From: Escherichia coli O127:H6 str. E2348/69
GTDB taxonomy: Bacteria; Pseudomonadota; Gammaproteobacteria; Enterobacterales; Enterobacteriaceae
Length of the DNA: 64,000 bases
NCBI RefSeq assembly: GCF_000026545.1
Contig: NC_011601.1
Direction: 5' to 3' (one strand)
The stretch's first letter is position 1, and the number at the start of each line of letters is the position of its first letter. The position numbers were made by a program. Below are positions 15,001 to 17,074 of the stretch, piece by piece.

Positions 15001-17074
15001 GCGGGCAGGAAAACGCGCGGATTCGAGCGATCCGATACCGACCCCATGATGAATTTCGAAAATCCATAAGCAATCGAGATCCCCGAAAGGGCAAAACCTA
15101 AATCACCGCGTGAGAATCCCTGCTCAACCAGATAAGGCATAGCGAGCGCAAAGTTCTTACGAACCAAATAGTAAGCAGCATAGCCAAAGAATATCCCCAG
15201 GAAAATTTGCCAGCGCAATCGACGATAAGTCGGATCGATCTCCGCGGCAGGTAAGCGCGCTTTGTGTGGCGCTGGTTTAAAAATACTCAACATTGATAGC
15301 CTCCGTGGCCCGTGGTCTTATTTATGATTAACAGCCTGATTCAGTGGGAGAACCTGCCGTTTCTTGAGTTGCCGCGATATGTTAAGAAAACATTCATAAA
15401 TTAAATGTGAATTACCGCACACATTATTAAATACGATGGTTGAAATGTTCAGAATGACGCATGAAATCACGTTTCACTTTCGAATTGTGAGCGAATATGC
15501 GCGAAATCAAACAATTCATGTTTTTACTATGGCTAAATGGTAAAAAACGAACTTCAGAGGGATAACAATGAAAACTCGCGACTCGCAATCAAGTGACGTG
15601 ATTATCATTGGCGGTGGCGCAACGGGAGCCGGGATTGCCCGCGACTGTGCCCTGCGCGGGCTGCGCGTGATTTTGGTTGAGCGCCACGACATCGCAACCG
15701 GTGCCACCGGGCGTAACCACGGCCTGCTGCACAGCGGTGCGCGCTATGCGGTAACCGATGCGGAATCGGCCCGCGAATGTATTAGTGAAAACCAGATCCT
15801 GAAACGCATTGCACGTCACTGCGTAGAACCAACCAACGGCCTGTTTATCACCCTGCCGGAAGATGACCTCTCCTTCCAGGTCACTTTTATCCGCGCCTGC
15901 GAAGAAGCAGGGATCAGCGCAGAAGCCATTGATCCGCAGCAAGCGCGCATTATCGAACCTGCCGTTAACCCGGCACTGATTGGCGCGGTGAAAGTTCCGG
16001 ATGGCACCGTTGATCCATTTCGTCTGACAGCAGCAAACATGCTGGATGCCAAAGAACACGGTGCCGTTATCCTTACCGCTCATGAAGTCATGGGGCTGAT
16101 TCGTGAAGGCGCGACGGTGTGCGGTGTTCGTGTACGTAACCATCTCACCGGCGAAATTCAGGCACTTCATGCGCCTGTCGTAGTTAATGCCGCCGGGATC
16201 TGGGGGCAACACATTGCCGAATATGCCGATCTGCGCATTCGCATGTTCCCGGCGAAAGGATCGCTGCTGATCATGGATCACCGCATTAATCAGCATGTGA
16301 TCAACCGCTGCCGCAAACCTTCCGACGCCGATATTCTGGTGCCTGGCGATACCATTTCACTAATTGGCACCACCTCTTTACGTATTGATTACAACGAGAT
16401 TGACGATAATCGAGTGACGGCAGAAGAAGTTGATATTCTGCTGCGCGAAGGGGAAAAACTGGCCCCCGTGATGGCGAAAACGCGCATTTTGCGGGCCTAC
16501 TCTGGCGTACGCCCGCTGGTTGCCAGCGATGACGATCCGAGCGGACGTAACGTCAGCCGTGGCATCGTGCTGCTCGACCATGCTGAACGCGATGGTCTGG
16601 ACGGGTTTATCACCATCACCGGTGGCAAACTGATGACCTATCGGCTAATGGCGGAATGGGCTACCGACGCCGTATGCCGCAAACTGGGCAACACGCGCCC
16701 CTGTACGACCGCCGCTCTGGCACTTCCTGGTTCACAGGAACCCGCTGAAGTTACCTTGCGTAAAGTCATCTCCCTACCTGCCCCGCTGCGCGGTTCTGCG
16801 GTTTATCGTCATGGCGATCGCACGCCTGCCTGGCTGAGCGAAGGCCGTCTGCACCGTAGCCTGGTATGTGAGTGCGAAGCGGTAACTGCGGGTGAAGTGC
16901 AGTACGCGGTAGAAAATTTAAACGTTAATAGCCTGCTGGATTTACGCCGTCGTACCCGTGTGGGGATGGGCACCTGCCAGGGAGAACTCTGCGCCTGCCG
17001 CGCTGCCGGACTGCTGCAACGTTTTAACGTCACGACGTCCGCACAATCTATCGAGCAACTTTCCACCTTCCTAA

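Follow-up and report, generated by a model that had tools for sequence, protein, structure and literature searches.

The 274 bp that separate the divergent glpTQ and glpABC operons of Escherichia coli raise a simple question: is the CRP-like sequence lying between them a functional cAMP-CRP site, and if so, which of the two operons does it serve? We approached it in E. coli O127:H6, EPEC E2348/69 "variety 2", within a window of 64,000 nucleotides, the whole stretch of DNA that was analysed. The left flank of the spacer is glpT (13935-15293, minus strand), the first gene of glpTQ, which encodes the glycerol-3-phosphate:phosphate antiporter (NCBIfam equivalog NF008433, 977 bits). The right flank is glpA (15568-17196, plus strand), the first gene of glpABC, which encodes subunit A of the anaerobic glycerol-3-phosphate dehydrogenase (NCBIfam equivalog NF008313, 1105 bits). 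RefSeq gives the same two genes, and together these sources bear out a preliminary description of the locus, made from the sequence alone, as two divergent operons with a 274-bp spacer (15294-15567). The spacer is 98% identical to that of K-12 in an alignment. Rfam 15 covariance models run over 15200-15700 gave nothing at the gathering score, and their sole weak match (E = 0.33) falls within glpA.

The sequence in question is the 22-mer AAATGTGAATTACCGCACACAT, which occupies exactly 15403-15424, has no assigned strand, and is called CRP site 1 below. The TGTGA-N6-GCACA motif noted earlier at this position was confirmed by direct reading: TGTGA at 15406-15410, an ATTACC spacer at 15411-15416, and GCACA at 15417-15421, with A/T flanks on both sides. 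Compared with the 22-bp, two-fold symmetric CRP consensus, whose core was taken as TGTGA-N6-TCACA, the core agrees at 9 of 10 consensus positions and has the correct 6-bp spacing. The one departure is in the right half-site, which is GCACA and not TCACA; at the position of 15417, Genomic-SELEX half-sites carry T in 80% of cases and G in 11%. The motif had also been described as central in the spacer, which holds only roughly: its centre (15413.5) is offset by 17 bp toward glpT from the midpoint (15430.5). A CRP weight matrix was built from 148 Genomic-SELEX sites, with CRP site 1 and the other SELEX-listed site of the window left out. By this matrix, CRP site 1 scores 12.99 bits, ranks 3rd among 63,985 window positions, and outscores 68% of the sites on which the matrix was trained. 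The preliminary description had tied its reading to a significant CRP score at this position, and such a score is what the scan returned.

Could so good a match still be a chance resemblance with no regulatory role? The bare 16-mer consensus with at most one mismatch is not enriched in the window (3 occurrences versus 1.65 expected), a count that, taken alone, is unremarkable and not above chance. Against this, first-order Markov random sequence is expected to reach the score of CRP site 1 only 1.2 times per 64 kb, or ~0.005 times per spacer. Conservation speaks against chance as well. Among the aligned glpT-glpA spacers of 31 Enterobacterales, 28 keep the site at the aligned position with a score of at least 9 bits, and the median score across the spacers is 11.8 bits. 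The columns of TGTGA and GCACA are conserved at 0.9 to 1.0, while those of the 6-bp spacer drop to 0.4 to 0.7; hence, the site is maintained while its own spacer varies. Gaps between CRP site 1 and the glpT -10 hexamer occur in only 2 of the 31 species. Adding the SELEX, footprint, and mutant data for near-identical sequences, of which the published footprint contradicts chance directly, we regard a fortuitous match as exceedingly improbable.

CRP site 1 is in fact a real, experimentally mapped, classic E. coli site and was already known. RegulonDB places the K-12 site, AAATGTGAATTGCCGCACACAT, at -41.5 of glpTQ and -90.5 of glpABC (Table S4, Shimada et al. 2011, PMC3105977). Through the same source, RegulonDB gives two more CRP sites 50 and 90 bp rightward of it, and Genomic SELEX recovered the K-12 sequence TGTGCGGCAATTCACA from the glpTQ/glpABC spacer (PMC3105977). 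Kurabayashi et al. (2017, PMC5352689) found that cAMP-CRP shields a 25-bp stretch of EHEC DNA including AATGTGTGCGGCAATTCACATT, which spans -30 to -52 relative to glpT, against DNase I; in crp and cyaA mutants no glpT expression could be detected. The dependence of expression on crp and cya is also stated in general terms elsewhere (PMC4790336), and PhyloScan has glpT/glpA among its top-ranked cross-species CRP predictions. A comparison with footprinting data, which the preliminary description proposed, turns out in favor of the site: the protected EHEC sequence, though from a strain other than E2348/69, equals 15404-15425 read on the opposite strand except for one spacer base, so that the cAMP-CRP footprint covers a near-identical sequence. 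Searched in full text, the operator and CRP sequences turned up in PMC5352689 only. The Crp ChIP-exo supplement also lists glpTQ, an entry that carries no weight here.

Relative to the K-12 site, CRP site 1 shows a single difference in the alignment, at spacer base 15414, where E2348/69 has A for G. The A variant slightly outscores the K-12 G (13.0 versus 12.0 bits), and other Escherichia species, Citrobacter, and Salmonella likewise have A here. The one-base spacer variant of E2348/69 probably behaves like the site of K-12 and EHEC. The primary footprinting paper for the K-12 glpTQ-glpACB control region is said to be that of Larson, Cantwell and van Loo-Bhattacharya in J Biol Chem in 1992. 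Taken as a whole, the evidence makes it very probable that cAMP-CRP uses 15403-15424 as a functional site within the control region that the two divergent operons share.

How would CRP act from this site on each promoter? Positions near -41.5, -61.5, -72.5, -82.5, and -92.5 were taken as those from which CRP activates. Class II CRP-dependent promoters, as Busby and Ebright reportedly set out in 1999, have CRP near -41.5, overlapping the -35 region. At -41.5 of glpTQ, CRP site 1 has the class II position, in agreement with a conserved -10 hexamer, TAACAT (15379-15384, minus strand), which occupies -12 to -7 relative to the K-12 start. Its pattern TAnnAT is conserved in the 31 species, with per-base values of 1.0, 0.9, 0.7, 0.6, 1.0, and 1.0, and the promoter has no good -35 hexamer. 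Mapped via the K-12 alignment from the RegulonDB distance of -41.5 and the EHEC footprint at -30 to -52, the glpT transcription start would lie at 15370-15372 on the minus strand: 15370 corresponds by homology to the K-12 +1, and the start would be 15372 if the distance from CRP site 1 and the -10 hexamer is the conserved feature. For the leftward glpTQ operon, CRP site 1 would thus sit ~41.5 bp upstream of the start and overlap the -35 region. Such a position, together with the -10 hexamer read from 15384 to 15379, suggests that CRP would be a class II activator touching RNA polymerase, and its binding at site 1 would be required for glpT expression. The glpT promoter resembles class II promoters in its CRP centre at ~41.5 bp, the lack of a good -35, a recognisable -10, and the strict crp/cya dependence seen for EHEC glpT. 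It differs from them in that the distal half-site is GCACA instead of TCACA and in that the dimer is also placed for a second, divergent promoter.

Closer to the gene, a nearly invariant block, AGCCTCCGTGGCC (15298-15310, minus strand), is conserved at 0.8 to 1.0 in the 31 spacers. Its glpT-strand reading, GGCCACGGAGGCT, includes GGAGG, which, judged from its position 7 to 13 nt upstream of the ATG, is probably the glpT Shine-Dalgarno sequence. A generic sigma-70 scan produced one minus-strand promoter-like site, TGAACA-17-AATAAT at 15451-15423, versus 0.7 expected; it was set aside, since its hexamers fall on conserved blocks that a GlpR half-site explains equally well.

The K-12 glpTQ-glpACB region agrees in locus, genes, and the relative placement of its three CRP sites; what belongs to E2348/69 is an AT duplication, a 9-bp patch, and four single-base changes (15347, 15414, 15452, and 15487). 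The AT duplication (15377-15378, no strand; GCGATATG versus GCGATG in the K-12 alignment) lies directly downstream of the glpT -10 hexamer and lengthens the stretch from -10 to start from 6 to 8 nt. When complete E. coli genomes (5,426 in all) were queried with 46 nt spanning it, only 2 matched: E2348/69 variety 2 and EPEC1, which derives from it. Both were sequenced by Illumina at >100x coverage. The patch, CGATGGTTG (15434-15442, no strand), is lineage specific and stands where K-12 has AGATTTACA in the alignment; 1,165 of the 5,426 complete genomes (21%) carry the E2348/69 type. Other genera keep TGTTAC-N6-ATGACA over 15427-15442, which the patch replaces.

The contribution of CRP site 1 to glpABC is a separate matter. 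The RegulonDB CRP positions of -90.5, -40.5, and -0.5 put the glpA transcription start at an A, probably 15504 (plus strand), and the -10 hexamer would be GAATAT (15493-15498, plus strand), 5 nt upstream of it. This hexamer is only partly conserved, with GTTTAT in several genera. In RegulonDB coordinates, CRP site 1 occupies a class I-type position, -90.5, of glpABC, likewise close to one of the activating positions named above. CRP site 2, AATGACGCATGAAATCACGTTT (15453-15474, no strand), is given by RegulonDB at -40.5 of glpABC and -91.5 of glpTQ. It contains a conserved block, GAAATCACG, and Klebsiella has TGTGA-N8-TCACA there, but in E. coli it is weak and essentially a half-site.

One may then ask whether CRP site 1 serves glpTQ only, the catabolite and anaerobic control of glpABC coming from CRP site 2 and the composite of site 3 and FNR. 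Several observations lean this way: the functional data in the consulted papers concern glpT, CRP site 2, which would have to be the class II partner at glpA, scores a very weak 2.95 bits, a 70-bp stretch toward glpA is protected by FNR, and glpABC shows strong oxygen-dependent regulation in an hns/stpA background. The geometry leans the other way. A spacing of 50 bp between the CRP sites and of 132 bp between the starts yields a symmetric arrangement, -41.5/-91.5 versus -40.5/-90.5, that is unlikely to be an accident. Moreover, CRP at -90.5 can work jointly with a promoter-proximal activator, which also counts against a role restricted to glpTQ. RegulonDB, finally, has CRP site 1 activating glpABC from -90.5. 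We consider service to glpTQ alone unlikely and prefer a site shared by both operons. The shared catabolite control put forward in the preliminary description is supported by the RegulonDB listing for both promoters, the direct functional data in the consulted literature being for glpT only. From the RegulonDB entry and the -90.5 geometry we infer that CRP site 1 contributes to glpABC. On this shared reading, the same CRP dimer would act at -90.5 of glpABC, transcribed rightward from ~15504, with the weak CRP site 2 at -40.5 as its expected partner.

The probable glpA start itself is covered by a composite CRP/FNR/GlpR-like site (15493-15515, no strand), for which the evidence comes from RegulonDB, a published FNR footprint, and GlpR consensus matches. 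Its CRP component, CRP site 3 (15493-15514), scores 7.64 bits and is listed in RegulonDB at -0.5 of glpABC and -131.5 of glpTQ. Its FNR component, ATGCG-CGAA-ATCAA (15497-15510), matches TTGAT-N4-ATCAA at 7 of 10 positions, a level found 337 times in the window, and the FNR consensus scan, with that many matches at up to three mismatches, is uninformative as evidence. Read on the opposite strand, 15497-15510 of E2348/69 is TTGAT-TTCG-CGCAT, identical to the FNR motif of EHEC; there the motif falls within 70 bp protected by the D154A FNR mutant, in a study that interpreted FNR only for glpT (PMC5352689). Across species, the ATCAA half of the motif is invariant, and the left half is nearer to the consensus in Atlantibacter, Cedecea, and Serratia. 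FNR bound around 15497-15510 would add anaerobic control. Within the composite site, ATCAAACA is invariant in the 31 species, and the next A is nearly so.

Downstream of the composite site, the glpA leader holds a conserved block, TATGGCTAAATG (15528-15539, plus strand), which is conserved at 0.9 to 1.0 over 15530-15538 and reads TGTGGCTAAATG in most genera. The spacing from ATCAA to this block is invariant and gap-free in the 31 species, and the intervening sequence varies. RNAalifold gave no consensus structure for the leader over 28 distinct sequences; the E2348/69 leader alone folds into a hairpin of -7.7 kcal/mol. TGGCTAAATG was tried as a repeated motif and rejected, with 6 matches versus 4.9 expected. 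Does the block at 15528-15539 form, with the composite CRP/FNR site (15493-15515), a conserved unit absent from the consulted annotation? We hold this to be quite improbable. The centre of the composite site, 15503.5, is exactly 41.5 bp upstream of ~15545, and TGgCTAAAT is found at -15 to -7 of that position. There could be a second glpA promoter near 15545 for anaerobic use, with FNR or CRP acting from a class II position, and such a promoter, if true, would explain the "activator" site at -0.5 of the annotated glpA start. Alternatively, 15528-15539 could be a leader element for some factor. Among the starts listed in the Ettwiller 2016 supplement, none lies at the expected K-12 coordinates, which has no weight for or against the second promoter.

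The spacer had also been described as the expected location of GlpR operators, and candidates were indeed found in it, as GlpR-like 20-mers beginning at 15404, 15444, 15496, and 15536. GlpR (DeoR-family) operators usually occur in tandem 20-bp arrays. The operator consensus used, WATGTTCGWTAWCGAACATW, is a 20-bp palindrome that was validated on the K-12 glpD leader, where a 20/20 match is followed directly in tandem by a 14/20 match. The best 20-mer in the spacer is TATGCGCGAAATCAAACAAT (15496-15515), with 15/20 and a mean of 15.7/20 in the 31 species. Next in score come AATGGTAAAAAACGAACTTC (15536-15555) and AATGTGAATTACCGCACACA (15404-15423), the latter overlapping CRP site 1, each with 14/20 and a mean of 12.7/20 across species, and then AATGTTCAGAATGACGCATG (15444-15463), with 12/20, a mean of 11.1, and a conserved block, AATGTTCA. 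None of the four has an assigned strand, and all are conserved across species. Across the whole window, the best tandem run of four GlpR units spans 15476-15555 and ends with the unit 15536-15555; the intermediate units between the GlpR-like 20-mers match poorly (4 to 9 of 20). Inside glpA and glpT, nothing exceeded 13 to 14 of 20, and tandem arrays were absent. GlpR operators in the spacer would overlap both promoters, with repression lasting until glycerol-3-phosphate is present.

The overlap at CRP site 1 raises a further question. Is 15404-15423 also a GlpR operator, at which GlpR and CRP compete and for which G15417 has been kept? Such dual use is compatible with the CRP reading. In addition to the match at 15404-15423 and its mean across species, the spacer contains 3 of the window's 17 GlpR matches of at least 14/20. 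Of the 31 species, 29 have G at 15417 and none has T, despite the CRP preference for T, and the consensus GlpR half-site (AWCGAACATW) likewise has G there. However, a perfect CRP consensus itself gives 12/20 by hand count, which makes 14/20 a marginal gain and the GlpR signal at 15404-15423 weak, and a conserved G15417 could equally serve to hold CRP affinity sub-maximal. We therefore treat dual use as a tentative option, a reasonable idea that the evidence so far leaves in the minority, and retain 15403-15424 as a CRP site.

Several CRP sites also lie between the divergent operons of other pairs, and nagBACD-nagE, malEFG-malK, and melR-melAB are among those listed with glpTQ-glpABC (PMC3105977). 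Like these other pairs, glpTQ-glpABC has multiple CRP sites and joins shared catabolite control with a specific repressor or activator. It differs in having two CRP sites 50 bp apart in a mirror layout, each proximal to one promoter and distal to the other. As a discovery CRP site 1 matters little, being a long-mapped E. coli site. Its wider meaning lies in glpT, which is one of two fosfomycin uptake routes: since glpT expression would need CRP bound at site 1, promoter variants here can alter drug susceptibility. In E2348/69, the AT duplication beside the glpT -10 hexamer could be the main item of practical interest, and the 9-bp patch, shared with 21% of E. coli genomes, a lesser one.

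The glpT gene (13935-15293, minus strand) and the glpA gene (15568-17196, plus strand), each identified by an NCBIfam equivalog model far above its cut-off and by RefSeq annotation, are transcribed divergently from a 274-bp spacer (15294-15567); the same types of evidence place glpQ downstream of glpT, and both glpB and glpC downstream of glpA. The window is 100% identical to positions 2423214-2487213 of E2348/69 "variety 2" (NZ_LT827011.1). Sequence and annotation agree with the preliminary description of this spacer and of the TGTGA-N6-GCACA motif within it: TGTGA (15406-15410) and GCACA (15417-15421), separated by 6 bp, are contained in the 22-mer AAATGTGAATTACCGCACACAT (15403-15424), here called CRP site 1.

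The window contains 3 occurrences of a bare 16-mer CRP consensus with one mismatch (1.65 expected), a count that proves nothing, and a weight matrix was therefore built from 148 Genomic-SELEX 16-mers (Table S3, Shimada et al. 2011, PMC3105977), leaving CRP site 1 and the other SELEX-listed site inside the window out of the training. CRP site 1 scores 12.99 bits, ranks third among 63,985 window positions, and surpasses 68% of the training sites; a first-order Markov model predicts 1.2 matches of at least 12.99 bits per 64 kb and ~0.005 per spacer-sized stretch. The proposed CRP site thus receives a significant matrix score.

CRP site 1 is already known, and its detection here is a rediscovery of a textbook site. 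RegulonDB, whose CRP sites are reproduced in Table S4 of PMC3105977, lists AAATGTGAATTGCCGCACACAT as an activator site at -41.5 of glpTQ and -90.5 of glpABC, and the same site was recovered by Genomic SELEX (PMC3105977). Two more RegulonDB sites map to the spacer: AATGACGCATGAAATCACGTTT, at -40.5 of glpABC and -91.5 of glpTQ (site 2, 15453-15474), and GAATATGCGCGAAATCAAACAA, at -0.5 of glpABC and -131.5 of glpTQ (site 3, 15493-15514) (PMC3105977). The K-12 spacer is 98% identical to that of the window, and CRP site 1 differs from its K-12 counterpart only at 15414, with A in the window and G in K-12; the A is shared with other Escherichia species, Citrobacter, and Salmonella and scores slightly better than G. 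Footprinting in EHEC leads to the same site: cAMP-CRP protects from DNase I a 25-bp stretch with the near-identical AATGTGTGCGGCAATTCACATT, at -30 to -52 of glpT. Mutants in crp and in cyaA show no detectable expression of glpT (Kurabayashi et al. 2017, PMC5352689). In the same study, the D154A FNR mutant protects 70 bp, starting 32 bp past the CRP site and including TTGAT-TTCG-CGCAT (PMC5352689), the reverse complement of window positions 15497-15510. Myers et al. 2013, in their supplementary tables, place a glpT/glpA entry under an hns/stpA double-deletion strain and count glpA, glpB, and glpC among the genes that respond to oxygen in this strain only.

With one genome taken per species, the divergent glpT-glpA order is found in 67 of 81 glpA loci, and the spacer measures 249-276 bp in all of these except one Serratia locus. 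Across 31 of the 67 divergent spacers, aligned from Escherichia to Serratia, the half-sites of CRP site 1 show conservation of 0.9-1.0 while the six inner bases drift, and in 28 species the aligned position scores 9 bits or more as a CRP site (median, 11.8 bits). Gaps between CRP site 1 and the ATGTTA block (15379-15384) occur in only 2 of the 31 species; this block reads TAACAT on the glpT strand and is conserved in the pattern TAnnAT, as a -10 hexamer would be. Position 15417, the first base of GCACA, is G in 29 species and T in none; at the equivalent base of the SELEX half-sites, T accounts for 80% and G for 11%. The conserved G could reflect selection for sub-optimal CRP affinity or for an overlapping GlpR operator. 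In the exceptional Serratia locus (Serratia sp. AKBS12), the spacer reaches 360 bp, and the extra DNA contains a near-perfect CRP site, CGTGATGATGATCACA (17.2 bits), besides the conserved one.

Transferring the RegulonDB offsets would place the glpA start at 15504 and the glpT start at 15370, which corresponds by homology to the K-12 start, or at 15372 should distance be conserved rather than base identity, an ambiguity caused by a 2-bp AT duplication. At glpT, a CRP dimer on site 1 would occupy a class II position overlapping the -35 region, upstream of the -10 hexamer TAACAT, a placement that fits the absolute crp/cya dependence. At glpA, the same dimer would be centered at -90.5, and site 2 (-40.5) would be its proximal partner. 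With 50 bp between CRP sites 1 and 2 and 132 bp between the two starts, each of these sites lies close to one promoter and farther from the other. Site 2 is weak in E. coli (2.95 bits), retaining the right half TCACG and having lost the left; the alignment shows TGTGA-N8-TCACA at this position in Klebsiella. Shared catabolite control of the two operons, as first proposed, is supported: CRP binding and its effect on glpT are established in the literature, and we infer that CRP site 1 also contributes to glpABC and that its E2348/69 variant behaves as the published version does.

GlpR operators follow the consensus WATGTTCGWTAWCGAACATW, which served as a lead and was validated by a perfect 20/20 palindrome in the K-12 glpD leader, with a 14/20 unit directly after it. 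At least 14/20 agreement is reached at 17 positions in 64 kb, 3 of them inside the spacer. Candidates for the operators expected in this region, which had eluded inspection by eye, lie at 15496-15515 (15/20), 15536-15555 (14/20), 15404-15423 (14/20), and 15444-15463 (12/20), and all four are also peaks of the cross-species mean score; the best four-unit tandem array anywhere in the window spans 15476-15555. The strongest unit occupies the same stretch as the FNR motif and CRP site 3, over the predicted glpA start. A GlpR operator overlapping CRP site 1 at 15404-15423 is only suggestive, because a perfect CRP consensus would already score 12/20; the GlpR consensus base at 15417 is G, as such an overlap would have it.

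The glpA leader holds another conserved block, TATGGCTAAATG (15528-15539; TGTGGCTAAATG in most genera), whose positions 15530-15538 are (nearly) invariant in the 31 Enterobacterales and which keeps a fixed distance from ATCAA and the invariant ATCAAACA. The block does not match the GlpR consensus or a good -10 hexamer, and it has no conserved RNA fold or Rfam family match. A T-run/A-run inverted repeat surrounds it in many species, and a reading of the block as a mini-ORF is possible (ATG/GTG GCT AAA, then TGA or TGG TAA). A second glpA promoter, FNR- or CRP-dependent and starting at about 15545, is conceivable from the sequence, because the center of site 3 lies exactly 41.5 bp upstream of this point and site 3 outscores every other CRP match in the spacers of Leclercia, Trabulsiella, and Superficieibacter (13.2 bits); against it, the hexamer at the right place is CTAAAT, without the usual A at -11. 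Toward glpT, the minus strand carries a sigma-70-like TGAACA-17-AATAAT (15451-15423) with a predicted start inside CRP site 1 and both hexamers within conserved blocks. This pattern could represent a glpT promoter that is either independent of CRP or occluded by it, or it could arise as a by-product of a GlpR half-site.

Elsewhere in the window, the top CRP matrix match is TGTGAAGCGCATCAAA (25273-25288, 13.3 bits) in the yfaX-yfaY spacer, identical to the Genomic-SELEX site between yfaXWVU and yfaY (Shimada et al. 2011), and a second match is TGTGAATCAGCGCACG (25332-25347, 10.8 bits). The sole Rfam match at gathering score is a nuoG RNA motif (RF01748, 48 bits; 57723-57765, minus strand) inside the nuo operon. 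The annotation also gives pmrD (36277-36544), directly after the arnBCADTEF operon, as a frameshifted pseudogene, and two gene remnants, a truncated elaD (deubiquitinase; 45719-45829) and a partial hypothetical gene immediately after rpnE (20773-21006).

Two features of the glpT-glpA spacer vary within E. coli. A 9-bp patch at 15434-15442 reads CGATGGTTG in place of K-12 AGATTTACA and occurs in 1,165 of 5,426 complete E. coli genomes. It disrupts an element that most other Enterobacteriaceae in the alignment strongly conserve at 15427-15442 as TGTTAC-N6-ATGACA, CRP-like half-sites with 8-bp spacing, and that is degenerate in Escherichia. The AT duplication (15377-15378) lies directly downstream of the glpT -10 hexamer, and only 2 of the 5,426 genomes match a query that spans it, those of E2348/69 variety 2 and of EPEC1, an engineered derivative of variety 2, both sequenced by Illumina at >100x coverage. 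The two bases are missing from another assembly of E2348/69. The duplication is probably a genuine mutation confined to the variety 2/EPEC1 laboratory lineage, in which it may affect where glpT transcription starts or how strong the promoter is, and hence the uptake of glycerol-3-phosphate and fosfomycin.
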